The notes under the pieces: model-generated | The model's input: the letters and a program-made list of their open reading frames with translations, nothing else | The model's database searches: none | Told to the model about the DNA's origin: nothing | Part shown: positions 1-62,282 of the stretch, piece after piece | Layout: the number at the start of each line of letters is the position of its first letter | How positions within the stretch are numbered: position 1 is the first letter of the stretch | IMG/VR virus record: IMGVR_UViG_3300025093_000019 | Coordinates: 15,290-79,289 of that record | Strand: one strand, 5' to 3' | Source of the DNA: a virus | Length of the DNA stretch: 64,000 nucleotides | Translations under genes and position numbers: made by a program

Positions 1-3000
1 TTGGTCTAATTGCATGCTTAGTTACCTGGTTAATTAACTGCTGTTTAATCTTACCCATGTTAGGTAAGTTCAAGCTAATATTACCATCTAGCCTACTCTT
101 AAATAAAAGCTCAGTGTATTGAGTTAACTCTCCAACTTGCTCTGCCTGCTGAATTCCTATATCTTTCAACCAATTAGCAAACGCATCAGGATCTAATCCG
201 CCTTCATCAACAAATTTTTTCATCATGTTGCTGATTGCATCATCAGATATCTTAGCTTTCAAGCTGTTTATTTGACCTACCCTTTCTATGTTTTGAGATC
301 CAACACCCATTTCAGCTAAAAGCTGAGTAGGCTGAGATTGCTTATCTGTCTTTTCAACATCTTGTGCTGCATTTAACTGAATACCAAAGAATCTGTTATC
401 AAGAGTTGTTGATACATTCCAAACATCATCATCGATATTTTGTATTGCTCTTGCACCTGTCTTCACTCCAGATCTAAATACTGCTTGTCCAAGTATTTCT
501 GAAGCTCTTCCTGTTGAAATAACTTCTTCTGTAATTTCATCAAGAGTTCTAGTTCCATTTTCCCAAGATCTATACAGCTGCTGAAGAACTGGTCCAGGCA
601 TCATCTTTCTGAAGTAATCTCTTGCTTTTGCAGAGTTCCTTAAAATACCTTCTGTCAATTCAAGACTTGCATACTTTATATACAAGCTATCATTAGTCGC
701 TAAATCTGTTTTCTTGTAAACAGGTTTACCCATACCTACACCCATGACACCAAGTTCATTACCCCCTAGAGAGTTCTTGAGCAACCTAGTGTATATTGGG
801 TTTTCAAAAGACAAACCATCAGTGTCTTCTGTTGTTGATTTGGCATTGAATATAGTTCTTAACTGATCGTATTCTTGAGTTGAAATATCTTCAAGTATCG
901 CAATGTTCGTATTCATTCCAACACCTCTTGGAGTACTCGTATCAACAACCCATAAAGGTGCCACGGCACCGGAACCTCTCTTAAAGTAATTGTCAACACC
1001 TTTATACTGCATAGTATTTCCGTCAACAATCTGGCTTAAATAGAAATCATTAAAGTGATACATATAGAAGAACGACTCTAATGTAGGGTTTACATCCCAC
1101 CATGTATAACCTTTAGGAGTTTTCTTAGTCATATCAGGATAGGCCCAATCAGTTTCAGTAATTCTATCAGTAGCTGTTCCTCCTCGTTCTCTCCATAGCT
1201 TAACCTCTTTTTTCAAGTGGTTAGCAGCATCCATATGAGTTCTAAAGAATATTGACTTAATCATTTCATCAACATTCTTGTCTTCTGTAATGCCTTTTTC
1301 TTTTAGATCTTTTTGTAACTGAGATTCAAAGAATACATCTTTTGCAGCATTAAAGTCCAAATCTACTCCTGCTTGTGCAGCAGTATTAATTTCTGCATTA
1401 ATCTCTTCATCATAAAAACCACCTTCAATAAGTTCTGCAAGATCTCTTTTGGCTTTTGGAACCTCAGCTGATCTTTTTAACCTACTAAAGTTGTTCCAGT
1501 TATAGACTCTATCAAACTCCATCATAGCACTAGGACCAGCAAAAACATATTCGTTTCCGTCCTCTAGTTTTCTAATTGTATAGTCACTGTCTATTACTAA
1601 ATCAGATCTCTTAAATGCATCTACAATATCCAATCGATTAGCACCTGTTTGCAAATCAGCTAAATACCATTTCATAGTATTAGGATCTGCTATAAACGAC
1701 TCAACAATTTCATTGTATTGCTGAGAAGCATTTTGTGCGTCCAGTGTAGTATCATTTATTACTTGATGTAATTTTGTTCCAGGTATATTTCCAATAACGT
1801 CAACTATTCTTGATGCTGACTTTTTTCTCTGGTTGTTAATGATCCTAAAAATGTTGATTACATTATCCTTAATCCATTGACGATCGACACTTATTGATCC
1901 ATCTTTTAATGTAAATGGATTGTTAGGTAGTTTTATATCAAATACCGGGACACCAGCTTTGTTTGATGTGTTATGATAAGGAAGTCTAAACGTCGGAATT
2001 CTATTTCCTCTAGCTACATCTTCAACAAAAAGACCATTTATTACGAACTCAGCAAAATCAAGCTCAGTCATTTGTCTTCCGTGTCTAGATCCATTTCTTT
2101 CATTTGCTAGACCACCCATTCTAACCATGTCAACAACTTCCCAATCTGATTCAGGATTTAGATATGGATTTAAAACTTCTAAGCCATAAGCTCCAGATTC
2201 ATCTTGTGTTAGTTCAAAGTTTGGATTGTTTGATAGTTCATCAAAAGTGGTTCTTTCAATAATTGTTTTAACCATTTCTTTCAATCCGGATCCACTATTC
2301 TTTCCACTAATTTGTGAGTTAGGAAATAGTCGATCGATAGTACTAGCATTAACATTTCGATAAACTTTTTTACCATCAACAGTGTAATACCACATGGCGT
2401 TATTTCCAAGCTCACTATCTGACTGAACTTTACCAAGGTTCTGAGTAAGTCTCCACATGTCAGTAGGCTTATAGAACTCTTCTCCAATTTCGGCACTATC
2501 TATTGTTGAGTCTTCATTTAGTTCATCTAAAGATTCAGTTTTGTATGCATTCTCTTCATAATACTTCTCAAGAAGACTTCTGATAGAGATGCTAGGATCA
2601 ACAGCTTCTTTTGCTGTAAGCATCCACATTCCTGCTATCTCTGCAATCTTAGCTTGATCAACTTTTAAGTCTGGATTATCTTGGTCCGTGTCTTCAACAG
2701 TGTCCATATATCTATTTATGGCATTGTCGTAAACCAGTTTACCAATATTGAAAAGGTTGAACAATGTTTTTATGTCTGAAGTTCTTACATTTTCACCAAG
2801 TTCAAATGAAACTATTTGAGATTTATTTTTCCCTTTAACAAACTTGATTACTTGCTTATCTGGTGCACCTTTTATTTTAAGTGTAACACCACTTGAAGTT
2901 ACAGATATATCATTGTTCTTACCTACTAACCTCTCTCTTATCCTTTCAGAAACCATAACCTCCCCATCAACAATAGAGAAAAGCGTATTATCTAGTCTCG

Positions 3001-6000
3001 ATTTAATAGATTGAGATATGTGAGATCCAATAGCCATAGAAGATTTCTTAGCATTGTAGAACTTGCTAGAAGTAGTAAATGTCTCTCCTGTAACTTCATC
3101 AAAATCTGTGTATCTTTTTGTATCAGAATACACATCGATAGTACTTCTTGTGGTAACAGATCCAAAGTGAGTAATAATTGCACTTATTAAATTGTCACTT
3201 GCTATACCTTTAGCTTTCACAACATCAGGATCATAACCTAGTATAGCTAAGTTTGATTTACCAGTAGCAACATTAACCATAGATCCCATTCTAAGTTCTT
3301 CATGACTTAAAAGTTTTTTACTTGGATCAGTATATTCACTAACAGCTGTAGGTCCTTGTGCTGCTTCTGTAACCCCAAAGTAATCTTCATAAAAAGATCT
3401 AACAGTGTTGTACGTCGGTGTACCCACTCCTGCATTATTAAATATCTCTCTTAAATGATACTTCAGTTTTTGAAGATCATTAAATCCTTTTGTGTTTTCA
3501 TTTTCAAATCTAGCTTTTTGAGATGCATCCGAAAGAACTTTAAAGATTGTAGGCTCATCAATAGTTCTACCATCTAAATCTACTTCATAAGTGTTTTCAT
3601 CAGTATAATATCTCAAAGGTGTATGCCTAATATGAAGCTTAACCAAATCAGAAAGAGTATCTGTAAAGTTTCTTTCATCAAGGTTGTCCATCATGTTGGT
3701 CTGACTTGTCTCATTTAAAGATTTCAATATTTCATCATCACCCTGAATTTGTTCTGCTAGATATACACCAAGCTTTTTAATCTTTTTATCTGACAAGTTT
3801 AGAGAAGGAACAGCAGAGTTAATAAAAGATATTAATGCTTCAGTGTTCTTACCAAATGTATATACCGTGTAAAGTAATGGTTGCTGACCTTTTAGTTTAC
3901 TTGCATTTGTTCCATTAACATCAGCATATGTTTTTACATCTTTACTACCATCAGAAAGCTCTAAATTAAAATAGTTGTTCTCAATTATCTGTGACTTAGC
4001 CTTATACCAGTTAACAACATTTGCTATTGTATCACTAATACTCATTGCAGGAGTATTGAGATCCCTATTAAAGTTTGAGAACTTAATTATCTGTTGAGCA
4101 ACATGTTTCTTAGCTTCGTCTGCTAATCCATGATCACCATAGATGTTTTTAGCAAACTTCATAAAGCTATCTTTTCTTTCTTCCGGATCTTCTAATACAT
4201 CTGGATTATCTTCGTTTGTATCAGGGTTATATTCACCATCGTTTTCACTTGCTTCTACTTCAGAGAATGATCTCTTATTTGGATCGATATTGAATTTACC
4301 AAGATCTCTCAAGAAGTCAGAATCAGTTTGATCAACTATACCACCTTTAGAATGAGTGATTGAAGAGACATCAATTTGATCAGTGCCCAAATAGAATCCA
4401 TAATTGTTTACATCTTCTGCTCTTGTTAACAATTGTGATTCCTGCTCTGCTTTTACATTTAGCTTCTTGTCCTTACTAGTAAAATCAACAGTCTGAACAA
4501 TCTTTCCTTTCATTATCTTAGAAATCTTCTTGTCCATTATATCTAAGGCAGATTCTAAGGATTTCAATAAAGCGGCAGGAGTGGTTTTTTGATTAACACC
4601 ACGTAATCCTATTTCTGCTTCATTCTTGACATATAAGTGTTCCGCAAGCTCTGGCCATCTTTGATCGAAAGCTTTTGTATCCGGATCTATTAAATATCCT
4701 CTGTTTTGCTGGAACAATTTATATGCTTTAGTTTTTAAAACATCCCTACCAGTGTAAGCAGTTCCCTTTAGATCGTTTAATTCACCCTTAATAAGGTTGT
4801 AGTGATTAGAATCATATTCAGGACTTTGAAGTATAATAGTACTCTTGTCAAATGCAGGACCTACCTTCCAAACATCTACAGCCCATGTGGCTATCTTTGA
4901 AGGTTTACCTTTAGCGTTTGTTATTGTCTTGTAATTAGTAGTCCAATAAGGAGTTCCTATCTGGAATCCTTTGTCTTTTAGTTTTCCTTTAAGTGCAGTC
5001 CAAGATTGCTTGTATTCCCCATACTGAACAGAACCTTGTCTTAAAGATTTCAGTTTTGCACGACCTACAAACCCTTGCTCCTGTCCAGCACCCTTTGCTC
5101 TAAATCCTGCAAGATCTAAATTAAACGATCTTAGATTCATTTGCGATTGTGCATTCTTATCGCCTTTAAATCCTTCTCTAATCTTTTTAAGTAGATCTTC
5201 TACAGCACCTTTGTCTTTATAGTTAATTGGCTCTCCTGTTTTTAGGCCGCCATCAACTCTTTTTCCAAAGTCTATTTCAGGTTGCGGAAGTGTAGCTATT
5301 ACATTGTAATTGTTGTCCTGAATATACTTTAATGCTTGGTCAAAATTCAATTCATTTCCAACGCTCTTACCATAAGAATCAGCATAGAACCTTGCCATCT
5401 CACCAAGAGTTTTTGAGTCTGCCTTGACTAGCAATACATTATTCATTAACTCTGGCTCTCCATCATCATTTAAAAGCTCAATGTTTTCGTGGAATGTTAT
5501 ATTTACAGCAGGAGCAGCCGTCCCATCATTCAGCCTTGACTTAATTGATTTGATAAACTCATTTTTAAAGTTTACATGATCATTCTGAAGATCCCATCCT
5601 CCTCCAATTGTACCTTGTTGGCTTTCTTTTTTCGGGTTCTTATCAAAGAATTCAGCTGCCTTTCTGATCTTGTTCAGGTTTCTGGTTCCGTCAGGATGAT
5701 ACTGATTTTTTGCTGCTAACAATACTTGCTTGGCAGCACCAATAAGACCAGCATGATAATTAGCCGGCTCTGCATCAAAAGGAATTTCTACTGATATCTC
5801 CCAATAAGCCGTTCTTCCTGCTCTGTCTCCAGGTACAACTTCTTGGTATGAAACTCCAGAGATCCTATCATCTTTAATAACTAAAGAGACATATTTAGAG
5901 TTTTCGTTAGATTTGTTTGGCTCTGTTACAAACGTACCTACAATTGTTTTTTGCTCATCTACATATGAATCATAATTTAAGTTAAACGCTGTAATTCTTT

Positions 6001-9000
6001 TGTCTGATAGTTCTGTTCCATACCATTTTTCAAATCCTCTAGATATACCACGGAACGTCAATTCTATTGCGTCGTCAGGAAATACTCCTGTATTTTGAAA
6101 AGTCTTTTGTGGGCTTTGAGATGCATTACCATACGCAAAAGTGTATCCAGCAGCATGCTTCATTGCACCTTCTTTGTAGATTCTTTCAGGGGTTCCGTTT
6201 GCTTCGTTCTGGTTTAAAGTGTCAATACTAGTAACGTCCTGTGTAGAGAACATTTGCTTAAACTCAGTTTCTGTTAATGGACTTTCCTTATCATGATTGA
6301 TTTCATAAAAAGTAGTTCCCTTTACATCTTTGTAAACACCGGTAACTTCAACAAGAGTTGTTGGATCATTATTGTTGACAAACATTTGACTTATGTCAGA
6401 ATGTCCATCGTCATAGTTTCTAACATTCTTGTCTTTAAATTCAGGCAAGATATTGTTATCAACCATTGATTCTCCATATGCTTTATACTCTGCAAACTCT
6501 TGAGAGTCATAAGGCATAACAATAAAGTCAGTGTCTTCTACTTTAGCGATACTGGCATTATCTTTAATCATGGCTTTCACTACGCCTACATTTCGGATCT
6601 TATATTCAGGTCTTCCAGACTTTTCATCACCCTTTGTAAGTATTCTAGCGTAACCACCCAATTGTGCTAGAGCAGCATTTAGTCCATTATTGAATTTTTG
6701 AGATCCATCCGGCATCTTAATAAACCCTTTTTCAAAAGGATCTGCCTCATTGGTGTCTTCAAAGAATTCGTGACTTCCAGGAGTAAGTGTTTTAAGATCA
6801 TAAATATCTAGAACTGGTATTCCATCTTCTATACCAACTACATCTACAATATCAATAGTTCCTGCAACATCATTAATGTAAACAGCAGCAATGGTTTCAG
6901 GAAGAGTTCTGGATCCACCTTTTGTAAGTCTCTGAGCAATTGGTATTGCAACATTTTGAATTACGTCATTAATAAATGGATGATTTTCAAATGTAGAATC
7001 AGCATCATCTCCAATAGGTTCTATTTTAGATAGCTTTGCTTTTTTACTCTTATTGTGCTTATCTACAGCTTCATTATAAGCCTGAATAAGATTTGTAATC
7101 TCTTCTTTATCAGACTTTAAAAACAATTTGTTTCTTCCTGGTGCTTGTCTTGTTAAATAAGCTTCTACTATTTTATGTGCTGCTTGACCTCTTAAAGAGT
7201 AGGATCTATCATTAAAGTCTTTTGTTGGATTTGTTAGATCTTGGTTCTTTCTTTCTGTTACAGAATAAAGACCTTTTCCATCCATTACATATCTAAACTC
7301 AACTCCACCAACTTTAAACTTAGCACCTAAATCAGGTGCCTTTTTAAGTTTGCCTTTTTTGTTAGCATTTTTGATTTGATTTCTTATTCCTTTGAATTGA
7401 TCATCACTAAGTTCTTGAAGTTTAGTGTTTTGCTTTGGACCATCTCCTTCATTGTTTCCAGGTGTACCTGTTTCGCCTACTGGATTTGTTTGTGAACCAG
7501 TTATAGAAGAAAGGAAGTTATCCATTCTTTGAATCTGATCATCTGTTGCTGTTGAAGTCTCTACTATTATTGGAGTACCCTCTTCGCTATATCCGGTAGG
7601 AGAAAGAACTAATGCATATCCAGCTTTAGAATCATCATATTTTTTAGCTCTAGTGGCAGCTGTAAGCATTGCTCTGTTATACAGGTGCTTTGCATCTGCT
7701 TTTTCAATAGCTACAAATATTCTAGGGAACTCTAAACCTTGAACATAGCTTTCACCTTTTTCCATTGTCTTTATAACACTATCCAGATTCAGGTTAGGGT
7801 TATTTATTTTTGACTGAATATATCCTTTTGCTGCATTTTTATCAGCTTCTGTATATACAATCAAGACACTATTTGTTTGCTTAAACTTATCTTGAGAGTT
7901 TAGATCATCTGCAAATCGATCGTACATTTGGCTTTTGCTTCCGGAGAAATATTCTAAACCATTATTTCTTTCAGAATCATAAGTTCCTTTTGGAAGAGTT
8001 ACCTCTTCACCACTAAATATGTTTATTCTAAATGCATTTTGGAAGTTGTTAATGTCAGCGGCACCAGATCTAAATACCTGTGTCGTTGGCATTGTTCTTT
8101 CCATTTTTCTTTCAACAGCTAAAAGCTCTCTTGCCTGCTGATTAATATCTGTCATTTGAGACTGATCACCCAAAAATATAACCTTTGGCTTTGCTACATT
8201 CTGGCCTTTTAACGCAGCCACTAGTGTTTTAAATTCAGGTGTACTAATACTAGAGGCTTCATCAATAACAATAACGTCAGTATTCTTAAATGATTCTATG
8301 TTATTGTTGATTCGATCTATTAGCTGATTAATATTGTATCCTTGGTCCGTTCCATTTTGTCTGATAGACATCATATTGCTTGCAAGAGCAGATTGTAACT
8401 CAGTACTAGGTGCTGAAAGATCGATATTCAAGTTTCTTCCCTTGTAACTAGAGTACATTGATAAAGCTGTTTTTATTATCAATGAAGTTTTACCAGTTCC
8501 TGCAAAACCACGAACAAATAATGACCTACTTAAAAAGTCATTGATCATGTGTCTTGATGTCTTATCAGATTTAGACTGTCCAGTTATAGCCTCCTCTAAA
8601 TCCATCAACATAGCATTGTCAGGATTCACTAATAACCCATACACATGCTTAATAACTTCCATCTGCTCAAAAGAAGGAAGAACTCCAGATTCTTGTCTTA
8701 TCTGATTTACAGCTTCTTGGAAGCTAGAATAAAAACTTTTAGAGTCTAGTCTTGCTATATTCTGAATGTAGTTCTGGAAGTAAACTCTTGCAAATTGTTG
8801 CTTCGCTCTTAAACTATCTGTCATTAAACCTTCCGGTGTTGACATAGAAAAAGACTGATAAGTATATGCATCATCATAATTTGCATCTGTAAACTCATCA
8901 GCATTTAAGTAAGTTAACTTTTTCTTTTTAGCACTCTTATACTTTTCAAAGTATAGAGTTAACTCTTTAGCGACCTTTTTAGAGTCTTGACCTTTTAAGA

Positions 9001-12000
9001 AGTTGTGTAGATCCGACTCAATATCAACAATGATTTTATGAGCCTGGTCTAAAGCTTCTATCGGATAATTTCCATTATCTGCATAAAAAGATTCAGCTTC
9101 ATTTAATAAATCTCTAACTCTTGCTTGATTCGCTTCAATACCTTCGTAAACTTCTTTATCAAGATTAGGAAGAGCAGTAATCATATTTATGATGTCATTC
9201 TTAATCTTGTAGTCATTTAGTCTTAGTCTTGACTCTTTATTCTTTTTGTCATTTACATCTAATCCCTGCTTAATTTTTAAAGACTCCAAAAGAATTGCTT
9301 TGTCCATTAACTCTTCTTGGATTCTTTTTGCCTGAGCATCTGTTATCTCGGCTTCAGCACTTGGCTTTAAGTGTCCAATGTCATGTTGTTTACCAACCTC
9401 TGACATGTATCTACTTGCATTGACAACATATGAGTTATTTCTAATAGAACGCTCTAAAAGCTCAATGTTCTGTAGATCTTCTTCATTAAGTGTTCTTGAT
9501 GCTAAATCTTTCAAAGACTCAGTAATCGATATCTCATTACCTTGTCGATCGACATATGTATCATAATAAAGAGACTTGAAATCATCTTCATTGAATTCAA
9601 CTGGAGATTGAGGAGTTATTCCTTGTGGTTTCCCATAATGACTTAGTTGAGATAAAGGAATTGCTTCTTCCCTACCTTCAACCATTGCAAACTGCTCTCC
9701 GTCAAAATCTTCAATGCTTTGAACTTTTCTTGGTACTCCAAATTGTTCTTTACCATCTATTTTCCACTGAACATTATCACCAACTTTAACCTCAGAAGAG
9801 GCTTCAAAGTTCTTAATAGTATTGTCTATTTCGTTCAAAAGCTTAAACGCACTGTTTCTTGCGGAACCAGCTGGAGCTTGCTCAAGTTTACCCATCCAGT
9901 AATCTTCAGCAGTCATACCCATTATTTCTTCCTGCTCTTTAAATGCAGCAACTTCTTCTTCAGTCGGTTCTAAAGCAGAGCTATCTGGAATGCTTTCGAG
10001 AATTGCCTCTTTTTCTGCTTGAAGTTCTTTAATTAACTTCTCTCTTCCTGCTTCACTTATTCCAAGATCTGTTGCTTTTCTTTGCAAATCTGCAATCTTA
10101 CCTAAAGCAGTGTCGTAATCTCCAATGTCTTCAGCATATTGACCAGAAATATCTGGATCTACCATAAAGTCATCAGCAAGAACTTTTGATTCAAATTCTT
10201 TACGCTGCTTTGATCTTTCTTTTACTTGCTCAATAGTTTCTGCACGTTTTCTATCATATCTTTTATGAACATCATCCATTGCTGTCGCAGGAGGAACATG
10301 ATTAGATCCATCAGGAGCAACCATATATGTATCATTTTCAGCACTGAAATGCTTTAAATGAGTGTTAACCTGATTTTCTTTTACTCTTCGTCCAGAAGTA
10401 ATCTCTTTTAATTGAAGTGATAGATCTTTTTTCTGTCTTTGTAGATCTTTTAATTGTTCTTCTAACTCAGCAGTTTTTTCAGCATTCCCTACATTTTCAG
10501 CCATCTCGTTATTTAAGGCTTCTATCTCTCTTTGTAAGCCTTGTGAAAACTTCTGATACTCAAAGGCTTCTCTAAGCAATGCTTTACCTTCCATGTTAGA
10601 CATCATCTCTTCAATGATTCTAGGATTAGGCCTTCCATTCTTTTCGCCTTGTCTTGCTATTTCTTTTTTGATGGTTTCAAAAAGCTTTACAGACTCATCA
10701 AGCTCTTGCTTAAATATTCTGTAATTCTCTTCATGAATACTGATTGAGTTCGGATCATTCTCATCTACTAGTTTACCATCACTAGTAACATCTGTAGGAC
10801 CAAATGTACCCATTGTTCCTTGAACCTTCCCAAATGCCTCATCAGCTTTTTTGTAAAGAATATCTTGATTTCCTGAAACAATAAAGTCAGCAATCATACC
10901 ATCTCTTGTAGGTCTTGTGCTTGTGTTTCCATTCATGGCATTTGTGATACCTTGAATACTACCCATAAATCCACCACCTATAGCACCAAGCCAAAACTCT
11001 TGTGCTATCTCTCCTTTAGTGTTATTCCAGTAGTTACTAAAGAAACCATCGTTATGATTGTAATAATTAAACATACCGCCTTCTGGTATATTCTCAATCA
11101 TGTTTACATTTTTCTCGTAAGTCTCTTTAGATATTTCTCTTCTTTGCTGATGTTTTTTATCCCACTCGTAATACTTACCGTCTTTAGCTTCGTATTTATA
11201 TCGATCGGCTTTAATTCTAGCCTCTCTATTTTGAGAGCTAACTATGTAATCATTAATAGTAGTGTAAGCACCTTCAAGTCTTCCTTCTATAACTTCTTCA
11301 GTACCTTCTTCTAAAGCTGCCTTCATAAAGGTTGGCATCTTTTCATAAGCGTATGAACCACCTCTTTTAGTAAGCTCCCATGTTTTCTTTCCTAAGTTTT
11401 TACTGTGTCCTAAAAGCCTATTAACTAACATCTTAGATGCAGCTTTAGTTTCTTCTTCTGTCAACTCCTTAGCTGTTTTTCCAAACGAACCAGCTGCAAT
11501 ATCAATAATTTCTCTTTTGATAAGTTCGTCAGCATCAGATTTAACTAAAAATCTTTGTAACCCATCATCCAAGATGTTTGGGCCAAACCTTTCAACAGCA
11601 AATGCTGTAGCAAGCATAGGACCATAAAGAAGTGTTTGCTGATCTTCAGTAAGACCTATTTCGTAACCGGTTCTTTTTAAACCGTCAGCAGCTTGAATTG
11701 CCATTAATCCTGCACCAAGTCTTGTTCCAAGTTTTTGAAGCTTATGTAACTTTTCTATATCAGTAACACCCCTAGCTGCTGCCAACTTTGTAGGTAATTT
11801 TCTTGTTATAACCATTTCTAGAATTTGGCCAATAACAGCACCTGAATGCCATGCCAATGCAGTTCCATTATCATTCCAAGAAACATCTAAAACATCTTGA
11901 GGAGTACTTACGGAAGCCCAAGAAGCTAAATTCTTAAAATACTTATCGCCTTGATCTAAAAAATCATCATCTCTTCCCGGAACATGATCTATTCCACTAA

Positions 12001-12979
12001 AAGTGTATATTCCATATTGTGAATTCGTTCTCTGTAAAACATCATTAATCCAGTCAGTTAAACCAACAATACCAGAAGGTATTTGAGCTAAAGTATTAAC
12101 TACCACCTGGTCCCAAAGGTTTTCATACCATGTAGAATACATTGCTTTAGGACCATTTGAAGCAAATATAGCATCAGAATTATACACATCATCATGAGCA
12201 GAAACTTCTCTAGCAACAGGAACACCTTCTCCATCGTAATCGACAATAAGAACTGTATTTGATTCTGGACCTGGAAAAAGACCTGCACCCCAAGGGCCAA
12301 ACCACTCATCACCATCTTTGTCTAAGTCACCAACTCTTATTTCCTGTCCATCTTCTGTGACTATAGTTTTGTAGTTTCGCTTATTAGGATCATAGCCACT
12401 ATCTTCATCACCTTCATTTACAATAGGTAGATAGTAACCCATATCATAGGCTAACTGCTGATCTGTTTTTTGTCTAATAACTTTACCAGTCTGATCAAAC
12501 CTCCATCTGGTATCACGACCAAAAATATTATAAACTCTTGGCTGATGATATCCTCCTGGATCTTTTAATTCAGCCCAAGGTGAAGTCCATGTTCTTAAAT
12601 GGTCAGTTATACCAAGACCATTGTCATAAACACCTTGTTTATAGTTTTTGTATTGATTAGAGTATGTTTCATATCTTTGTTCAAAATCTGCATCACTAGG
12701 TTTAATTCCTATTTTTTTTGCAGTCTCATTGTAGCTTTTTCTAGCAAATTCTTTATCTCCTAGAGTTACGTTTATTGTTGGATCGTTCATTACCTTTCGG
12801 TATATTCTTTCATCATCCAACCCATACATTTTGTATGTAAAATAATCACGATCTGAAGATCCAACTAATGCTTCTTGATTTCCTCCGTTTCCACCAGTAT
12901 TGTTTCCTGCTGGCGTTGGATTTGTATCACCGCCTCCTTGATAGTTTTTTCTAACTACAATTTCGTTTTTCTTTTTCAT
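1..12979 (-). CDS. Giant virion (ejected) polyprotein, >4,300 aa, 3' end outside window: hydrophobic N-terminal region, coiled coil, SF1 helicase, RecB-like PD-(D/E)xK nuclease and crAss-type two-barrel virion RNA polymerase
   Basis: ATG at 12979 (MKKKNEIVVRKNYQGGG). The same frame was checked at 8500, 6862, 1018 and 4, and the track reports no closed ORF from this start. Helicase motifs: GFAGTGKT (~8490-8510), IDEAS, GDQSQ, QGLEF, TAATRAK (~7645-7665). Nuclease motifs: RGQAAH, AGTIDIV, DIYDLKT, QLGGY (6640-7200). RNAP-like motifs at <1020: YKGVDNYFKR, EDTDG, GKPVY..K, FRSGVKTG, GIQL..TQLL. The catalytic DxDxD would lie beyond position 1. Confidence 0.88.
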   Translation of the reverse strand, partial: MKKKNEIVVRKNYQGGGDTNPTPAGNNTGGNGGNQEALVGSSDRDYFTYKMYGLDDERIYRKVMNDPTINVTLGDKEFARKSYNETAKKIGIKPSDADFEQRYETYSNQYKNYKQGVYDNGLGITDHLRTWTSPWAELKDPGGYHQPRVYNIFGRDTRWRFDQTGKVIRQKTDQQLAYDMGYYLPIVNEGDEDSGYDPNKRNYKTIVTEDGQEIRVGDLDKDGDEWFGPWGAGLFPGPESNTVLIVDYDGEGVPVAREVSAHDDVYNSDAIFASNGPKAMYSTWYENLWDQVVVNTLAQIPSGIVGLTDWINDVLQRTNSQYGIYTFSGIDHVPGRDDDFLDQGDKYFKNLASWASVSTPQDVLDVSWNDNGTALAWHSGAVIGQILEMVITRKLPTKLAAARGVTDIEKLHKLQKLGTRLGAGLMAIQAADGLKRTGYEIGLTEDQQTLLYGPMLATAFAVERFGPNILDDGLQRFLVKSDADELIKREIIDIAAGSFGKTAKELTEEETKAASKMLVNRLLGHSKNLGKKTWELTKRGGSYAYEKMPTFMKAALEEGTEEVIEGRLEGAYTTINDYIVSSQNREARIKADRYKYEAKDGKYYEWDKKHQQRREISKETYEKNVNMIENIPEGGMFNYYNHNDGFFSNYWNNTKGEIAQEFWLGAIGGGFMGSIQGITNAMNGNTSTRPTRDGMIADFIVSGNQDILYKKADEAFGKVQGTMGTFGPTDVTSDGKLVDENDPNSISIHEENYRIFKQELDESVKLFETIKKEIARQGEKNGRPNPRIIEEMMSNMEGKALLREAFEYQKFSQGLQREIEALNNEMAENVGNAEKTAELEEQLKDLQRQKKDLSLQLKEITSGRRVKENQVNTHLKHFSAENDTYMVAPDGSNHVPPATAMDDVHKRYDRKRAETIEQVKERSKQRKEFESKVLADDFMVDPDISGQYAEDIGDYDTALGKIADLQRKATDLGISEAGREKLIKELQAEKEAILESIPDSSALEPTEEEVAAFKEQEEIMGMTAEDYWMGKLEQAPAGSARNSAFKLLNEIDNTIKNFEASSEVKVGDNVQWKIDGKEQFGVPRKVQSIEDFDGEQFAMVEGREEAIPLSQLSHYGKPQGITPQSPVEFNEDDFKSLYYDTYVDRQGNEISITESLKDLASRTLNEEDLQNIELLERSIRNNSYVVNASRYMSEVGKQHDIGHLKPSAEAEITDAQAKRIQEELMDKAILLESLKIKQGLDVNDKKNKESRLRLNDYKIKNDIINMITALPNLDKEVYEGIEANQARVRDLLNEAESFYADNGNYPIEALDQAHKIIVDIESDLHNFLKGQDSKKVAKELTLYFEKYKSAKKKKLTYLNADEFTDANYDDAYTYQSFSMSTPEGLMTDSLRAKQQFARVYFQNYIQNIARLDSKSFYSSFQEAVNQIRQESGVLPSFEQMEVIKHVYGLLVNPDNAMLMDLEEAITGQSKSDKTSRHMINDFLSRSLFVRGFAGTGKTSLIIKTALSMYSSYKGRNLNIDLSAPSTELQSALASNMMSIRQNGTDQGYNINQLIDRINNNIESFKNTDVIVIDEASSISTPEFKTLVAALKGQNVAKPKVIFLGDQSQMTDINQQARELLAVERKMERTMPTTQVFRSGAADINNFQNAFRINIFSGEEVTLPKGTYDSERNNGLEYFSGSKSQMYDRFADDLNSQDKFKQTNSVLIVYTEADKNAAKGYIQSKINNPNLNLDSVIKTMEKGESYVQGLEFPRIFVAIEKADAKHLYNRAMLTAATRAKKYDDSKAGYALVLSPTGYSEEGTPIIVETSTATDDQIQRMDNFLSSITGSQTNPVGETGTPGNNEGDGPKQNTKLQELSDDQFKGIRNQIKNANKKGKLKKAPDLGAKFKVGGVEFRYVMDGKGLYSVTERKNQDLTNPTKDFNDRSYSLRGQAAHKIVEAYLTRQAPGRNKLFLKSDKEEITNLIQAYNEAVDKHNKSKKAKLSKIEPIGDDADSTFENHPFINDVIQNVAIPIAQRLTKGGSRTLPETIAAVYINDVAGTIDIVDVVGIEDGIPVLDIYDLKTLTPGSHEFFEDTNEADPFEKGFIKMPDGSQKFNNGLNAALAQLGGYARILTKGDEKSGRPEYKIRNVGVVKAMIKDNASIAKVEDTDFIVMPYDSQEFAEYKAYGESMVDNNILPEFKDKNVRNYDDGHSDISQMFVNNNDPTTLVEVTGVYKDVKGTTFYEINHDKESPLTETEFKQMFSTQDVTSIDTLNQNEANGTPERIYKEGAMKHAAGYTFAYGNASQSPQKTFQNTGVFPDDAIELTFRGISRGFEKWYGTELSDKRITAFNLNYDSYVDEQKTIVGTFVTEPNKSNENSKYVSLVIKDDRISGVSYQEVVPGDRAGRTAYWEISVEIPFDAEPANYHAGLIGAAKQVLLAAKNQYHPDGTRNLNKIRKAAEFFDKNPKKESQQGTIGGGWDLQNDHVNFKNEFIKSIKSRLNDGTAAPAVNITFHENIELLNDDGEPELMNNVLLVKADSKTLGEMARFYADSYGKSVGNELNFDQALKYIQDNNYNVIATLPQPEIDFGKRVDGGLKTGEPINYKDKGAVEDLLKKIREGFKGDKNAQSQMNLRSFNLDLAGFRAKGAGQEQGFVGRAKLKSLRQGSVQYGEYKQSWTALKGKLKDKGFQIGTPYWTTNYKTITNAKGKPSKIATWAVDVWKVGPAFDKSTIILQSPEYDSNHYNLIKGELNDLKGTAYTGRDVLKTKAYKLFQQNRGYLIDPDTKAFDQRWPELAEHLYVKNEAEIGLRGVNQKTTPAALLKSLESALDIMDKKISKIMKGKIVQTVDFTSKDKKLNVKAEQESQLLTRAEDVNNYGFYLGTDQIDVSSITHSKGGIVDQTDSDFLRDLGKFNIDPNKRSFSEVEASENDGEYNPDTNEDNPDVLEDPEERKDSFMKFAKNIYGDHGLADEAKKHVAQQIIKFSNFNRDLNTPAMSISDTIANVVNWYKAKSQIIENNYFNLELSDGSKDVKTYADVNGTNASKLKGQQPLLYTVYTFGKNTEALISFINSAVPSLNLSDKKIKKLGVYLAEQIQGDDEILKSLNETSQTNMMDNLDERNFTDTLSDLVKLHIRHTPLRYYTDENTYEVDLDGRTIDEPTIFKVLSDASQKARFENENTKGFNDLQKLKYHLREIFNNAGVGTPTYNTVRSFYEDYFGVTEAAQGPTAVSEYTDPSKKLLSHEELRMGSMVNVATGKSNLAILGYDPDVVKAKGIASDNLISAIITHFGSVTTRSTIDVYSDTKRYTDFDEVTGETFTTSSKFYNAKKSSMAIGSHISQSIKSRLDNTLFSIVDGEVMVSERIRERLVGKNNDISVTSSGVTLKIKGAPDKQVIKFVKGKNKSQIVSFELGENVRTSDIKTLFNLFNIGKLVYDNAINRYMDTVEDTDQDNPDLKVDQAKIAEIAGMWMLTAKEAVDPSISIRSLLEKYYEENAYKTESLDELNEDSTIDSAEIGEEFYKPTDMWRLTQNLGKVQSDSELGNNAMWYYTVDGKKVYRNVNASTIDRLFPNSQISGKNSGSGLKEMVKTIIERTTFDELSNNPNFELTQDESGAYGLEVLNPYLNPESDWEVVDMVRMGGLANERNGSRHGRQMTELDFAEFVINGLFVEDVARGNRIPTFRLPYHNTSNKAGVPVFDIKLPNNPFTLKDGSISVDRQWIKDNVINIFRIINNQRKKSASRIVDVIGNIPGTKLHQVINDTTLDAQNASQQYNEIVESFIADPNTMKWYLADLQTGANRLDIVDAFKRSDLVIDSDYTIRKLEDGNEYVFAGPSAMMEFDRVYNWNNFSRLKRSAEVPKAKRDLAELIEGGFYDEEINAEINTAAQAGVDLDFNAAKDVFFESQLQKDLKEKGITEDKNVDEMIKSIFFRTHMDAANHLKKEVKLWRERGGTATDRITETDWAYPDMTKKTPKGYTWWDVNPTLESFFYMYHFNDFYLSQIVDGNTMQYKGVDNYFKRGSGAVAPLWVVDTSTPRGVGMNTNIAILEDISTQEYDQLRTIFNAKSTTEDTDGLSFENPIYTRLLKNSLGGNELGVMGVGMGKPVYKKTDLATNDSLYIKYASLELTEGILRNSAKARDYFRKMMPGPVLQQLYRSWENGTRTLDEITEEVISTGRASEILGQAVFRSGVKTGARAIQNIDDDVWNVSTTLDNRFFGIQLNAAQDVEKTDKQSQPTQLLAEMGVGSQNIERVGQINSLKAKISDDAISNMMKKFVDEGGLDPDAFANWLKDIGIQQAEQVGELTQYTELLFKSRLDGNISLNLPNMGKIKQQLINQVTKHAIRP

Positions 12980-12988
12980 TCTTAAAGA

Positions 12989-14902
12989 TTATGGCATTGT
13001 TGCTTGTTGATCTATTCCTTCATCGCTACCCAACATGTCCTTAACCGTTCTCATTTGTCTAGCGTAATCTCCTGTTGATGTAACTATGTTTATATCAGCA
13101 CCTTTAGCTCTACTAGCATTTGGATTTGCTAAATCAGCATAATGCATTGAATTTGTCATATTAGAACCTAGATTGATTTCTAGCCACTCACGCTTCCATT
13201 CTTGACCTTCTTTTGGAAGAGTTATACCATAAGATCCTTCAAGCTCATCTTGTAATCTCCAGTTAATTAAATGAGCTGCAAAATCTTCACCATGAGATGT
13301 TTGCCCACTAACTATAGGTCTTATTTCTCCAACACCTTCAGTACCATCAAAAGCCATGAGCTTTCCACCCTCTACTAGATCATCGTCTTCATTGATTAAG
13401 ACTTTCCAGTTTGCCACCCACTCTTGTTTTTTCACACGATTACCAAGATCATTTGTAGTCCATTCATCGCCATTCATCAAGGTAAGGTTATTAACACCGA
13501 CAACTCTCATTCGCTTTAACTCGTCTGCTGTATATTCTGTCCACAATCCATCTAAATTTAACTGACCATTTTGTGCTAAATCGTACATTGTTGTAGTTCC
13601 ATCCTCCTTAACAAAAGCGTCTTGAAATTGCTGTAAATACGGTCCAAAGTTTTGCCAATTATACTGATCAGTTTTATAAGCATCTTTAAGTACTATCTCT
13701 TTTCCATTTACATATTCACCACTCTCAGTATAGTTATTTACACCAACTTGATCTGTCTCTGGTCCTGCCCCTTCCGAAATATTAGCATACATAAATTGAC
13801 TTTGATCTTGAAGAACTTGACCAGTTTTAGGATCATAATTTTGATAAGCCCACTCATCTCTCTTTTTTGATTCTGTCTTCTTTTGTTTTAGTTTTTCTGC
13901 ATAGTCACCAACTCTAGAAGCAAAATAAAACTCTTCAGCAACTTGAATTTTATCAGGATCATTTAGTTCATCAAATGTAAACTTTCTATTTTCTAAAACT
14001 AGTTGTCCATTTTCATCTCTATAATAACTACCATCATCATTTAGTTTAGGCATTGAAAATGAACGATTTCTATGATACGCATCAAACATTTCTTGACGCA
14101 GAAAGTATTCATGATTTTCATCTAGTCCATATTTTCTTATATAGTCAACAGCCGCTTTAACTTGTTCATAGTTGTTTGCTGTAAGTCCTCCTGATTGATG
14201 AAGCTCACCTAATCCAAAGCCAAAACTTGATGTATTGTCTTGGGTTACCTTTGTTATATTGTCCCAAGCACTACTATTAATACCACGATCGCTAAAGTAA
14301 GCATTCATCATGGCGTTAAACTTATCCATATCCCCAGTTCCTTCATCATAATCAATAGGCATTAAACCTACTGTTCCATCATCATGATATCCTAGATTAG
14401 GGTTATTTACTCTTTGCTCTAAGTATTCCTTTTTTGTAGTACCAGTAATTTTTCCTTTATCGTCCTGATTCCACTGCTTCATCATATAGTTACCACCACC
14501 AACATCCCTCAGTTCATACTGGCCTTGTTGCTGCCCGGAACCATAAGTTCTTAAAGCAATATCTCTAGCTTTTGTTAACTCTAAATTTCTAGTTAAGGCT
14601 TGTTTATTGTAAGCATAATAGTTTTGAGTTCCTGCCAATTGCCTATATTTAGGATCTGCTTGAACCCAATCCATTTCACCTCCATACTGACTATAAAGAG
14701 ACTTTAGTCCTGTTTGATAGTTTAGTTGATTTTGATACATCCATTGACCATCTCCCGGAAGACCTTCAACTTCCAGGTCGGGCATACCAGGCATAGCGTC
14801 TTGTGGCTTTTTATATCTTGTAAAACCTAAAGGCTGTCTAGCCCTAGCTCTTTGATAAGCCATTGTCCCAGGTGCATCACCCATGTAATTTACTAACGCC
14901 AT
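12989..14902 (-). CDS. Putative internal virion/cargo protein (637 aa)
   Basis: Long ORF immediately upstream of the vRNAP polyprotein, the position of ejected proteins in crAss-like phages; no recognised motif. Confidence 0.55.
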   Translation of the reverse strand: MALVNYMGDAPGTMAYQRARARQPLGFTRYKKPQDAMPGMPDLEVEGLPGDGQWMYQNQLNYQTGLKSLYSQYGGEMDWVQADPKYRQLAGTQNYYAYNKQALTRNLELTKARDIALRTYGSGQQQGQYELRDVGGGNYMMKQWNQDDKGKITGTTKKEYLEQRVNNPNLGYHDDGTVGLMPIDYDEGTGDMDKFNAMMNAYFSDRGINSSAWDNITKVTQDNTSSFGFGLGELHQSGGLTANNYEQVKAAVDYIRKYGLDENHEYFLRQEMFDAYHRNRSFSMPKLNDDGSYYRDENGQLVLENRKFTFDELNDPDKIQVAEEFYFASRVGDYAEKLKQKKTESKKRDEWAYQNYDPKTGQVLQDQSQFMYANISEGAGPETDQVGVNNYTESGEYVNGKEIVLKDAYKTDQYNWQNFGPYLQQFQDAFVKEDGTTTMYDLAQNGQLNLDGLWTEYTADELKRMRVVGVNNLTLMNGDEWTTNDLGNRVKKQEWVANWKVLINEDDDLVEGGKLMAFDGTEGVGEIRPIVSGQTSHGEDFAAHLINWRLQDELEGSYGITLPKEGQEWKREWLEINLGSNMTNSMHYADLANPNASRAKGADINIVTSTGDYARQMRTVKDMLGSDEGIDQQATMP

Positions 14903-14920: not shown

Positions 14921-16777
14921 TTAAGATGAATATAATTCGCCTAGCTGTCTTCTTTCGTCTTCAGTCATTTTCATGTAGTCTGAAAAAGATAAATACCCAC
15001 TTTTTGGATTGTTAGGATCTTTTCCTGCCATCATTTTAGCTTTGTCTAAAGATTTATAATCCATGTATGCAATATCCATATCCATAGAAGACTTTTCATT
15101 AATCAATCCTTGATCTCTGTATAGTCCAGCTTCTTCTGCGTCAAATATCTCACGAACATTTCCTGCAATCTTCTCACCTTTGTCTGCTGCAAACGCAGAT
15201 CTAGCAGCTTCATTTTGCATATCTCTTTGCATCTTCTGACCAAGCCAAGTAGAATTGTATTGATCTTCTCTTACTCTGTCTTGATTTAATTGCTGGTTTT
15301 GCATTGTCCATAAAGAAGACGCTATCTTGTTTTGAGAGTCCATCTGATTTGCACTAATGCCTGTAGTACCAACTGGAGATCCCCCCATTTGCTTATTGAT
15401 ATAGTGAGCCAATCTAGCTTGCTTACTTACGTCTGCTTCAGCATCTTGTTTCATTGTCTCATAGTCCATCCTTGTAGATGAAGGACGAACTCGAATTGGA
15501 TCAGGAAGATCTTTGTATTGACGACTAAGATTCCAAAGCCCCATCCCTGCATTTGCCAATTGCTCTCTTTGAGTCAAAGCTTCACTTCTCTCCATTAACC
15601 CAGCCAAAGCTTTTTCTTCTGGACTTTGTTCTTCAAATTTAGATGTATCTCTAGGATCTGTTGGATCTTTAAATTCGGCATCTAATTCCGGATCGTATAG
15701 TTCATGACCCTCTGGAAACTTTCCACCTGGATAATTATTACGATTAGTGAATGCATCGTCAGAAAGGCGTAATGGCTGTCCTGTTTTTTCCTCCCATGTT
15801 GGAAGAGATGCAGGCATCTGCATGTGATATGGATCCAAATCTTTACCAACGATATAGTTGATTGGATTATCAGGATCTCTCAAATCGAAACCACGCTTAC
15901 CAGCTCGTATCTGTTCCTTTTGACGCTCAATCTCTTCAGGAGATAATCCAGACCATCCGCCTCCAATAGTAGACCAATCAAGATCATCGATATTGTCAGC
16001 GTTGTAAACTCCTGGAATCATGTTTCCTGCAATACTTGGATCTCCAGTTCCCATGGTAGGAGTATTGGCATTTACTCCAGCTGCACCCACTCCTTCTCCT
16101 TCAGCTACTTCTTCTGATGTTGGTGATATTGGTGATGTTGGTGATGTTGAAGTATTTTGATATTGAGCCATTATTGATGGATCCATTTCTAAAAACTGGT
16201 ATTGACTATTTCCTTGTAGATATTTAGGCCATTCTCTTCCAGCTAATTTATGAGCACCTTCAACTGCACCATCAGTAAGATCGTTGTCTCCATACATATT
16301 TTGTATTAATGCAGCTACAAACTCTAATGGAACGTCTGTTCCACCACCATTTTGATACGAAGGATACTGATTATTGTTATTCATCATCAGCCCATATAAT
16401 TTACTATCTACCATATCCTTTACTTGTTTAGTGGTTCCACCTTTTACTCTTTTGTTGTATGGAGAATTTGGAGAAAGAGCTTCTGGATCTATTCCCAATT
16501 CATTTTGCATTCTATCAACTTGTTCTTGATTCAGGAAATACTCTTTAGATGAAATATTAATATCCATTCCGGATCCTCCGCCTTGGTTCATGCTAACTTT
16601 TTGATTTGGATCATAACCTAATGCAGCAACAATCTTTTTAACTGATTCAACATTCTCGTGAGGCACAACATGCCCCGGACCAGCATTCATTTGTTTATCG
16701 TCTGCTTTAGGATTTCCATTCCCCGGAACAATTCCGTAAGAACCACGTTTAGTCATATTTCCAAATAGAGATCCCAT
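14921..16777 (-). CDS. Putative internal virion/cargo protein
   Basis: Start probably the ATG overlapping the previous stop (TAATG). Has MNQGG and YQNGG motifs, an N-terminal G-x-V-x-G-x-G...D...I-S-x-x-E-Y segment and a Gln-rich coiled C-terminus. Confidence 0.55.
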   Translation of the reverse strand: MGSLFGNMTKRGSYGIVPGNGNPKADDKQMNAGPGHVVPHENVESVKKIVAALGYDPNQKVSMNQGGGSGMDINISSKEYFLNQEQVDRMQNELGIDPEALSPNSPYNKRVKGGTTKQVKDMVDSKLYGLMMNNNNQYPSYQNGGGTDVPLEFVAALIQNMYGDNDLTDGAVEGAHKLAGREWPKYLQGNSQYQFLEMDPSIMAQYQNTSTSPTSPISPTSEEVAEGEGVGAAGVNANTPTMGTGDPSIAGNMIPGVYNADNIDDLDWSTIGGGWSGLSPEEIERQKEQIRAGKRGFDLRDPDNPINYIVGKDLDPYHMQMPASLPTWEEKTGQPLRLSDDAFTNRNNYPGGKFPEGHELYDPELDAEFKDPTDPRDTSKFEEQSPEEKALAGLMERSEALTQREQLANAGMGLWNLSRQYKDLPDPIRVRPSSTRMDYETMKQDAEADVSKQARLAHYINKQMGGSPVGTTGISANQMDSQNKIASSLWTMQNQQLNQDRVREDQYNSTWLGQKMQRDMQNEAARSAFAADKGEKIAGNVREIFDAEEAGLYRDQGLINEKSSMDMDIAYMDYKSLDKAKMMAGKDPNNPKSGYLSFSDYMKMTEDERRQLGELYSS

Positions 16778-61681: not shown

Positions 61682-62282
61682 AAAAGGCACAATGAGAAAA
61701 CCATATGAAGATGTATCTGATGACATAAAAGTAATGGCTACAGATATAATTACTATCGTATCACAAATCTTCGGTGTAGATAAAGAAGTAATCTTATCTA
61801 AGAGAAGACATGAGCACATAATAACAGCAAGAGCAGCATGCTTTGCTTTATTGTGTAAAGTTGAAAGAGTAGGGCCGGTAGATGCCGCTGCAATATTTAA
61901 GAAAGACCATTCTAGTGCAATACACGCAATCAAAGTTCATCATAACTCGTATGATACAAACCATTTTGGTTATTGCAACAAGTATGAAAAGTGTTTAGCT
62001 CTGTATTATATGAGCAAAGACAAAAAAGCACTAGAAGAAAACGATGCTGTTTATGGAGGAATATCTGCAATTGAAAAGAAAATCAATCGATTACTTGAAA
62101 TCAAAAGAAAACTGATCGAGTGCAGACTTCAGAACAAAAAGATAGATAGTCAGTTATTGAATGCAATCTCTCAAGAGATGCCTCCAGAGGTGACTCTTAA
62201 CTTGTATGAATCAAACATATCAAAAGGTATTAATATCAAAAACACAAAGCATGAGCCTGAAAATCAGCCAATCAATGATTAA
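61653..62282 (+). CDS. Protein with DnaA C-terminal (domain IV) HTH
   Basis: IVSQIFGV....ILSKRR...I..AR...IFKKDHSSAIHA. Confidence 0.75.
   Translation: MLVKQIMMYKKGTMRKPYEDVSDDIKVMATDIITIVSQIFGVDKEVILSKRRHEHIITARAACFALLCKVERVGPVDAAAIFKKDHSSAIHAIKVHHNSYDTNHFGYCNKYEKCLALYYMSKDKKALEENDAVYGGISAIEKKINRLLEIKRKLIECRLQNKKIDSQLLNAISQEMPPEVTLNLYESNISKGINIKNTKHEPENQPIND

Follow-up and report, generated by a model that had tools for sequence, protein, structure and literature searches.

The 64,000-nt window analysed here, bases 15290-79289 of a single 79,289-bp IMG/VR record, opens inside a gene for a 6,829-aa protein which, judged from sequence and predicted structure, joins an SF1B helicase, a RecB-family nuclease, a gp66-type RNA polymerase (RNAP) and a gp65-type zincin in one chain. 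We have very little doubt about this identification. It is a single real gene of 6,829 codons, and it lies in the virion-gene block of a distant crAss-like phage whose genome, 79 kb long, is complete and whose host is probably a Bacteroidota bacterium. Fused RNAP polyproteins and a PDDEXK domain in large transcription proteins are already published; the finding here is that a Dda/RecD-type helicase is fused to the virion RNAP in a whole lineage of distant crAss-like phages, with a RecB-type nuclease added in one clade.

The giant gene and its genome

On the minus strand an open reading frame occupies window positions 2-12979 (4,326 aa) and is open at its 3' end, with no stop within the window, as the original prediction had stated in describing an uninterrupted frame of more than 4,300 aa. 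The same prediction had proposed to extend the contig, and in the full record the frame does extend beyond the edge of the window (base 1) and ends with a stop, genome 7779-7781. The start codon is the ATG at window 12979-12977, and the first 4,326 of the 6,829 codons lie inside the window.

A frame of this length could be an assembly chimera or could give separate products from internal starts, and the fusion would then be biologically meaningless. We find this hardly credible, since none of the 6,829 codons is a stop, where the other two frames of that strand contain 541 and 965 stops over the same stretch, and since the same collinear frame is uninterrupted in at least nine independent assemblies (ENA, JGI, Logan). 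The collinear homologues, from independent metagenomes, measure 6,181-6,502 aa, and the family alignment shows conservation over the whole length of the protein, which also argues against a chimera. An assembly artefact was rejected on the independent collinear assemblies and the stop-free frame. The point in favour of separate products is the internal zincin, which likely cuts the chain into separate proteins, so that the mature products may be separate.

The genome is complete by a 127-bp end overlap and a CheckV value of 100%, and the record is listed in IMG/VR with direct terminal repeats, although the 127 bp may be an assembly overlap rather than a true repeat. Small plus-strand genes lie next to the end. 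TerL, portal and MCP were identified by PHROGs, the TerL being approximately 30% identical to that of Crassvirales, and tail-collar and BNR genes lie downstream of the giant gene. Separate replication genes, namely DnaB, primase and a PDDEXK_1-like ORF, are held in a block on the plus strand, from which we conclude that the fused helicase and nuclease are not the replication set of the phage.

The helicase

The helicase covers residues 1483-1780 (window 7640-8533, minus strand) and was recognised by Pfam, by a PDB profile search and by its motifs. Pfam AAA_30 matches it at 3.6e-12 and 46.9 bits (cut-off 27), with further matches to AAA_19, Viral_helicase1 and UvrD_C_2, which bears out the full set of SF1 motifs predicted at 7,630-8,520. 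The set (I, II, III, V and VI) is complete, with Walker A K1497, Walker B D1573-E1574, motif III GDQSQ, motif V QGLE and motif VI TAxTRA, and it is kept in 22-23 giant proteins of the family. When PDB chains were searched with a profile that includes stand-alone relatives (20-34% identical), the matches were T4 Dda (2e-37), RecD2 (3e-24), RecD (4e-24) and Pif1 (1e-19), whereas UvrD/Rep-type chains were marginal, Rep reaching 1.7e-6 on a C-terminal piece only. By these profile matches the motor belongs with the SF1B enzymes of the Dda/RecD/Pif1 group and stands further from SF1A, and homology of the motor to RecB/AddA was rejected on the same matches.

No AAA_30 match was obtained anywhere in the genomes of phi14:2, crAss001, cr130_1 and cr52_1, four classified Crassvirales, so that virion polymerases of the crAss type do not, as a rule, require a helicase. 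In the papers covered here no helicase is mentioned.

The nuclease

The nuclease was assigned to residues ~1925-2176 (window 6452-7207, minus strand) from its predicted fold and its invariant motifs. Nine homologues share R1930-G-x3-H1935, E2028, D2043, D2061-x-K2063 (D2061-L-K2063 in the present protein) and Q2106-x3-Y2110, so that the PD-(D/E)xK nuclease with a QxxxY motif anticipated at 6,640-7,200 is found where it was expected. The AF2 model of the domain (pLDDT 73.9, pTM 0.76) was compared with 48,161 chains, and ranks 1-15 were all RecB-family nucleases with Z values of 6.2-8.8, which are middling scores (MGME1 8.8, RecE 8.0, AddA 7.6, Dna2 7.5, RecB 6.6). The best ~30 Foldseek matches were also nearly all of the RecB family, making the family assignment consistent in two aligners. 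The Pfam scan of the giant protein returned no nuclease family, and a search of the genome with PF12705 (PDDEXK_1) at E<=1 matched only another ORF, which is explained if the domain is too divergent for that model. Collectively, the motifs and the model support the prediction of a RecB-family PD-(D/E)xK nuclease.

Yutin et al. 2021 (PMC7886860) reported a PDDEXK domain in large proteins of the transcription block in some crAss-like phages. The sole tblastn match to our nuclease among 50,697 phage records, at E 0.09, is cr108_1 gp052 (NC_055878, Steigviridae), a 1,714-aa transcription-block protein with the motifs RG..H, E, GT.D and D-I-Y-D-x-K, as here; the nuclease profile of the clade matches it at 7e-6, a weak similarity with 26% identity. 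In cr108_1 the domain sits in the protein after the RNAP and has no adjoining helicase, whereas in the giant protein it lies ~1,800 residues before the RNAP core and directly behind the helicase.

RecBCD, AddAB, AdnAB and Dna2 likewise combine a superfamily 1 motor with a RecB-family nuclease, and the fold of the nuclease matches AddA, AdnA, Dna2 and RecB (Z 6.6-7.6). The original prediction had taken the helicase-then-nuclease order for a copy of RecB/AddA. The order of the domains does resemble theirs, but the motors of RecB, AddA and AdnB are SF1A and the present one is SF1B, and its helicase and nuclease, unlike those of RecB/AddA, were not inherited together (see below). In Dna2 the order is the opposite, with the nuclease first. 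AddB, Dna2, Cas4 and Exo5 carry an Fe-S cluster; the four cysteines of this subgroup are missing here, and with no cysteine anywhere in the protein its nuclease has no such cluster.

The RNA polymerase and the zincin

When the protein was searched directly against PDB, PHROGs and Pfam, its RNAP, nuclease, N-terminal and middle parts had no match, and with tblastn neither the RNAP part nor the helicase-plus-nuclease part found a counterpart at 1e-5 among the 50,697 phage records. A profile of the wide family matched gp66 of Cellulophaga phage phi14:2 (PDB 6VR4) with 97.1 bits in hmmsearch, in three collinear stretches mapping to gp66 789-1040, 1145-1250 and 1315-1790. The first half of the RNAP core, consisting of the predicted first double-psi beta-barrel and the connector (residues 3903-4326, window 2-1273, minus strand), aligns to gp66 795-1230, in accordance with the crAss RNAP motifs that had been proposed below position 1,020, and LNAxxDNAK is conserved between the two proteins. 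The DxDxD motif expected beyond the window is DYDID at residues 4542-4546 (genome 14631-14645), in the predicted second barrel. It aligns to DFDID at gp66 1361-1365, has the isoleucine at the fourth position where crAss-type polymerases have Ile or Val, and its three aspartates are invariant in 15 giants. The trigger-loop region, residues 4677-4715, was located outside the window by the gp66 alignment.

Structure prediction of an 851-aa RNAP slice was poor (pLDDT 48.7), with the first barrel alone usable and the second below pLDDT 50, for which reason the second-barrel assignment stands on the sequence alignment. Residues 60-254 of the model, in the region of the first barrel, superpose on gp66 902-1102 in the same register as the sequence alignment (VIA-align against 6vr4_A: Z 9.8, rmsd 3.9, 140 residues), and 6vr4_A is Foldseek rank 1 for the RNAP model. 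The comparison of domain slices with known folds, which the original prediction had recommended, thus gave matches to SF1, PD-(D/E)xK and gp66.

The zincin motif HEMLH is found at residues 5486-5490 (genome 11799-11813, outside the window) and has a downstream Glu. Pfam gave only a weak Peptidase_M91 match (0.014), while the family profile matched phi14:2 g065 at 1e-15 and the wide profile matched it at 8.8e-28 with a second collinear stretch at 1.5e-9, covering both the zincin and the gp65 C-terminus. On these alignments the C-terminal part of the chain is a gp66-type two-barrel RNAP followed by a gp65-type zincin and C-terminal domain.

Distribution and history of the domains

Helicase, RNAP and zincin occur together, in an unchanged order, in at least 22 giants from metagenomes, the helicase being at a fixed position with intact motifs and always accompanied by the RNAP. 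Thirteen related giants of 4,919-6,598 aa have these three domains in order and no detectable nuclease, which is confined to the closest clade among the giants found. Because the helicase is kept without the nuclease in these thirteen, the two were not inherited as a unit; the nuclease was gained within one clade, and since it is missing from most of the helicase-bearing giants, resection cannot be the ancestral role. The original prediction had asked whether the architecture is spread across Crassvirales: helicase, RNAP and zincin do recur in these metagenomic giants, but AAA_30 is absent from the four classified genomes. IMG/VR yielded one relative of the giant protein only, a scan of GTDB genomes yielded none, and the wider alignment of giants contained no stretch conserved enough to serve as a query.

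Huge fused RNAP polyproteins with a zincin are described by Drobysheva et al. (bioRxiv 10.1101/2020.03.07.982082), with citation of Yutin et al. 2018. Among the closest known systems is that of phi14:2, where g065-g071 encode virion proteins confirmed by proteomics in a gene order that matches the present genome. The block g067-g066-g065 has the same place among the virion genes and the same order as the giant gene, the RNAP being followed by the zincin-like RNAP-associated protein gp65; the RNAP core is homologous, with a shared D-aromatic-D-I-D, and the zincin and C-terminus match gp65. The differences are that phi14:2 has separate proteins instead of one chain of 6,829 aa, that ~3,100 residues before the RNAP have no detectable similarity to g067, and that the SF1B helicase and the nuclease of the chain have no counterpart in phi14:2.

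Proposed role of the giant protein

The giant protein contains 0 Cys in 6,829 residues, against 1.22% in the other ORFs (P about 5e-37), all its homologues have 0-6, and cysteine is nearly absent in the corresponding phi14:2 proteins as well. The lack of cysteine is in keeping with a protein that has to be unfolded on its way across the envelope, and it could serve as a cheap sequence mark for proteins ejected through the tail. Partial unfolding of cargo has been described (PMC10172136). By analogy with the cargo proteins of crAss001 and with phi14:2 gp65-gp67 we infer that the giant protein would be made late and packed in the capsid, and would be extruded partly unfolded through the tail together with the DNA. 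Its own zincin may cleave it. The location of the gene among the virion genes, the synteny with phi14:2 and the lack of cysteine support the packaging of the RNAP indirectly.

In vitro, gp66 transcribes single-stranded or denatured DNA and not duplex DNA (bioRxiv 10.1101/2020.03.07.982082). Our proposal is that the helicase and nuclease act on the incoming phage DNA on behalf of the polymerase, which we consider plausible, if with somewhat less than an even chance. SF1B motors move 5' to 3' on one DNA strand. From an end or a nick, the predicted motor and the RecB-type nuclease would unwind or resect the 5' strand, much as RecBCD handles its 5' strand, where a RecD-type motor feeds a RecB-type nuclease, and this would leave a single-stranded template for an RNAP dependent on ssDNA; in the wider family, where the nuclease is missing, opening of the template would fall to the helicase by itself. 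The more far-reaching form of the proposal, that the injected polyprotein is a self-contained machine for opening and transcribing DNA, with the helicase (and in this clade the nuclease) making the single-stranded template and with phages lacking the fusion obtaining the activity otherwise, is possible but rather doubtful. If true, it would explain how a polymerase that depends on ssDNA can begin transcription of a duplex genome in vivo, in phages that are among the most abundant viruses known. The fused domains are a concrete candidate for the template-opening activity, with K1497, D2061/K2063 and D4542-4546 as the predicted catalytic residues.

Instead of serving the polymerase, the helicase and nuclease might be injected as a weapon that attacks the host chromosome or plasmids or blunts defences. 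Giant multidomain proteins with zincin, helicases and nucleases that are delivered with invading DNA are a described class, the polyvalent proteins of phages and conjugative elements, which include N4-type virion RNAPs fused to zincin peptidases (Iyer et al. 2017, PMC5512222). The present protein resembles them as a giant multidomain chain with a zincin peptidase and nucleic-acid enzymes, of the kind thought to be delivered with DNA to jump-start transcription; it combines helicase, nuclease, RNAP and zincin in one phage chain, with an LPD domain only as an Atlas lead (one of several from the N-terminus to viral clusters, in this case with LPD14). The N4-type RNAPs of that class are T7-like, however, and the one here is of the two-barrel crAss type, while polyvalent-protein helicases are mainly SNF2-type (with methylases) or UvrD-like (PMC5512222) and ours is Dda/RecD-like. 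The recent, clade-specific gain of the nuclease is as expected of arms-race modules, and for replication the phage possesses a helicase of its own, with another ORF as a nuclease candidate. On the other hand, the constancy of the helicase in the polymerase-bearing giants looks like a core and not a variable feature, and a RecB-type nuclease coupled to an SF1B motor can start only from a DNA end or a nick, while an intact circular chromosome has neither. We judge an injected weapon unlikely. Blunting of defences could take the form of stripping proteins off DNA or of competition with RecBCD or restriction.

A further alternative, which we regard as slightly less likely still, is a machine for genome entry or end processing, in which the motor pulls the DNA in, or the helicase and nuclease resect terminal repeats for circularisation or recombination-dependent replication straight after entry. 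In phage N4 the virion polymerase drives DNA entry by transcription, the recombination exonuclease RecE and MGME1 are among the best structural matches of the nuclease, and direct terminal repeats are assigned to the record. Against this, the repeat may be the mere assembly overlap discussed above, no annealing protein was identified beside the giant gene, a translocase on ssDNA is not an obvious importer of duplex DNA, and the nuclease is missing from most relatives.

The N-terminal and middle regions

The N-terminal ~1,450 residues (window 8630-12979, minus strand) gave no Pfam, PHROG or PDB match and hold no recognised domain; the ESM Atlas gave leads only for residues 1-1450, all to unnamed viral clusters. 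The hydrophobic Gly-rich helices predicted at ~10,950-12,100 correspond to moderately hydrophobic Gly/Ala-rich segments at residues ~293-470 and ~660-680 (window ~10,950-12,103), but Kyte-Doolittle 19-aa peaks of 1.0-1.2 at residues 293-311 and 373-391 do not amount to clear transmembrane helices. Of the coiled coil that had been proposed as well, there is a weak coiled-coil-type Pfam match at residues 808-950 (E 0.022), but a crude heptad test did not single it out. A charged helical stretch lies at ~800-860. Profiles built on the wide family, for the N-terminal as well as the middle region, had no match in phi14:2 g065-g071. The middle region, residues ~2180-3900 (window 1280-6442, minus strand), is without a Pfam match, and the ESM Atlas had no usable match for residues 2200-3100; the region is conserved in the family, and some of it is probably the counterpart of the first ~790 residues of gp66-type polymerases.

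The giant gene and its genomic context

It had been noted that an uninterrupted minus-strand frame of more than 4,300 codons fills the start of the window, and this was indeed the case. In an ORF listing with open ends the only long frame in the first 13 kb was 2..12979 (-), with 4,326 codons from its ATG, and it reached the window edge without a stop codon. The window corresponds to bases 15290-79289 of one record 79,289 bp long. The stop was found at genome 7779-7781 in this full record, resulting in a single ORF of 6,829 codons (genome 7779-28268, minus strand), while over the same span the two remaining frames on that strand contained 541 and 965 stops. Nine homologues of 4,050-6,502 aa were retrieved from ENA, JGI and Logan assemblies, with 44-48% identity in the helicase-nuclease part, and the seven full-length ones among them (6,181-6,502 aa) were collinear from end to end. 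Since the ORF is uninterrupted and collinear homologues are present in all three sources, the giant gene is real. An assembly artefact was ruled out as the source of the ORF by these homologues together with the stop counts elsewhere.

TerL, portal and major capsid protein (MCP) were recognized by PHROG family matches, and TerL shares approximately 30% identity with Crassvirales terminases. TerL is followed in order by portal, MCP, tail genes, several large proteins and the giant gene. The virion block of Cellulophaga phage phi14:2 has the same order, and its g071 to g065 products have been confirmed as virion proteins by proteomics. A replication block on the opposite strand encodes DnaB, a DnaG-type primase, an AAA_24 ATPase and a weakly PDDEXK_1-like ORF of 275 aa (window 62206-63033, plus strand; E 6e-5, below the cut-off), the latter a candidate for a second, stand-alone nuclease judged from its sequence. 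The phage is thereby equipped with its own replication helicase apart from the giant gene. From the gene order and the separate replication block we conclude that the giant gene is a virion-block gene and that the phage is a distant crAss-like one. Just downstream of it lie a BNR/sortilin-like 803-aa protein (genome 4976-7387, minus strand), probably a receptor-binding tail protein, and a tail-collar protein. The record ends are identical over 127 bp (genome 1-127 and window 63874-64000), and the record is classified as having direct terminal repeats (IMG/VR) and as 100% complete (CheckV); an identity of this length is typical of assembler k-mer overlaps, and it indicates a circular or terminally redundant genome, not physical ends.

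An SF1B helicase followed by a RecB-family nuclease

The expected SF1 helicase was located at residues 1483-1780, where the Pfam family AAA_30 scored above threshold (46.9 bits) and AAA_19, Viral_helicase1 and UvrD_C_2 also matched. Using a helicase profile built with stand-alone relatives included, the best PDB matches were T4 Dda (2e-37), RecD2, RecD and Pif1, while UvrD/Rep-type chains were marginal, which identifies it as an SF1B motor. The motor is thus unlike that of RecB/AddA, which is SF1A, and the likeness noted originally is confined to the domain order. Walker A, Walker B and motifs III, V and VI are conserved in 22-23 giants.

The nuclease region gave no match in a Pfam scan or in a PDDEXK_1 search of the genome. 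Invariant residues of the close clade, i.e. the giants carrying both helicase and nuclease, are R1930/H1935, E2028, D2043, D2061-x-K2063 and Q2106-x3-Y2110. Residues 1880-2200 were modelled with AF2 (pLDDT 73.9, pTM 0.76) and compared with 48,161 representative chains, and the top 15 were all RecB-family nucleases, with Z scores of 8.8 for MGME1, 8.0 for RecE, 7.6 for AddA, 7.5 for Dna2, 7.2 for AdnA and 6.6 for RecB; Cas4 was also found, and Foldseek likewise ranked this family first. These Z scores are middling, and the predicted RecB-family assignment is based on the consistency of the family and the invariant motifs, in agreement with the PD-(D/E)xK nuclease with QxxxY proposed originally. 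Because the giant protein has no cysteine, the domain cannot hold the Fe-S cluster of Cas4/AddB/Dna2-type nucleases and differs from those enzymes in this respect.

Distribution among phages

Among 1.84 billion representative proteins, 31 matched the helicase-nuclease slice. Matches in the close clade span both domains, whereas 13 further giants (4,919-6,598 aa) match the helicase alone, at the same relative position. According to local profiles these 13 are collinear with the giant protein for helicase and RNAP, most of them also for zincin and C-terminus, and neither the nuclease profile nor the motif pattern detected a nuclease after their helicase. The helicase is therefore old in the lineage, and the nuclease was gained later, in the close clade only.

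The sole nuclease match among 50,697 GenBank phage records, a weak one, was in cr108_1 (Steigviridae); it falls within a protein of the transcription block (1,714 aa) and shows the same set of motifs. This fits published reports that a large transcription protein includes a PDDEXK domain in some crAss-like phages (PMC7886860; PMC10136315). AAA_30 had no match anywhere in the phi14:2, crAss001, cr130_1 and cr52_1 genomes, nor in the three cr108_1 proteins examined. One relative with helicase and RNAP (WP_216726103.1, 5,628 aa) is a Hymenobacter siberiensis RefSeq protein on a 4.77-Mb bacterial contig; the locus may represent a crAss-like element that is integrated or was co-assembled, and it points to Bacteroidota hosts.

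RNA polymerase, zincin and remaining regions

Single-sequence searches with the RNAP part (PDB, PHROGs, Pfam and the 50,697 phage records) were without match. A profile of 21 giants aligned collinearly with gp66, the phi14:2 virion RNA polymerase, over three stretches (97 bits), placing the anticipated DxDxD motif, DYDID (4542-4546), on gp66 DFDID (1361-1365) and LNAxxDNAK on the trigger-loop region. Drobysheva et al. (bioRxiv 10.1101/2020.03.07.982082) describe Ile in fourth place of this motif as the crAss signature. Residues 3950-4800 gave a poor AF2 model; even so, its confident part could be superposed on 6vr4_A (gp66) with Z 9.8, next best 4.4, in the same register as the profile alignment. 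The original assignment to a crAss RNAP holds.

A zincin motif, HEMLH, is present at residues 5486-5490, and together with the C-terminal ~1,300 residues it matches the zincin-like phi14:2 gp65 at 1e-15 (family profile) and 8.8e-28 (wide profile). This is the only HExxH in the giant protein; in more distant giants a second zincin-like motif, R-H-E-A-x-H, precedes the polymerase (middle region of the wide-family alignment). In cr108_1 (NC_055878, 1145-17882) the end of a 2,967-aa protein matches the first barrel and connector, and the next protein, of 798 aa, contains the trigger-loop region, so that its polymerase seems to be split over two proteins.

Residues 1 to ~1,450 and ~2180-3900 showed no recognizable relatives and no match to phi14:2 g067. 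The hydrophobic N-terminal segments described earlier are present with moderate hydropathy only, and the coiled coil could not be confirmed in a crude heptad test.

Possible roles of the helicase and nuclease

The domain content, conservation and virion-block context of the giant gene are established; by analogy with phi14:2 and crAss001 its product would be synthesized late, packed in the head and ejected partly unfolded with the DNA, and it might be cleaved by its own zincin. In vitro gp66 uses only single-stranded template (bioRxiv 10.1101/2020.03.07.982082). The helicase could open the incoming phage DNA for such a polymerase and, in the close clade, the nuclease could degrade the 5' strand tracked by the SF1B motor, like RecD with the RecB nuclease. 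We prefer this mechanism as a whole only tentatively, at somewhat below an even chance, since this helicase is lacking in several crAss phages, most helicase-bearing giants have no nuclease, and the 127-bp identity does not fix the physical genome ends. That the helicase and nuclease are injected as a weapon against the host or its defences, as envisaged for polyvalent proteins (PMC5512222), is in our view unlikely, and a role in genome entry or in end processing for circularization is rather improbable.

Giant polyproteins in which the RNAP is fused to a zincin (cited in bioRxiv 10.1101/2020.03.07.982082) and PDDEXK domains in giant RNAP/transcription proteins (PMC7886860) have already been published. 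In the literature examined we found no mention of an SF1B helicase fixed before the polymerase and kept in at least 22 giants, which does not prove that none exists.

Cysteine depletion

None of the 6,829 residues of the giant protein is a cysteine, compared with 186 of 15,305 (1.22%) across the remaining ORFs of 150 aa or more, and the probability of this by chance is ~5e-37. The four large upstream ORFs (window 12989-14902, 14921-16786, 16777-18276 and 22224-25262), probably cargo proteins, contain 0, 0, 1 and 0, the lone cysteine being the last residue of a 499-aa ORF, and homologous giants have 0-6 each. In phi14:2 (genome 10997-27200) the only cysteines are residue 1797 (the last) of g067, 3 and 2179 of g066 and 3 of g065, at the ends facing the next protein, and the fused giant protein has none; the pattern is less clean in cr108_1. 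Cysteine depletion may be a mark of ejected cargo. The BNR/sortilin-like protein, with 37 cysteines (4.6%), is sharply unlike the cysteine-free cargo genes.
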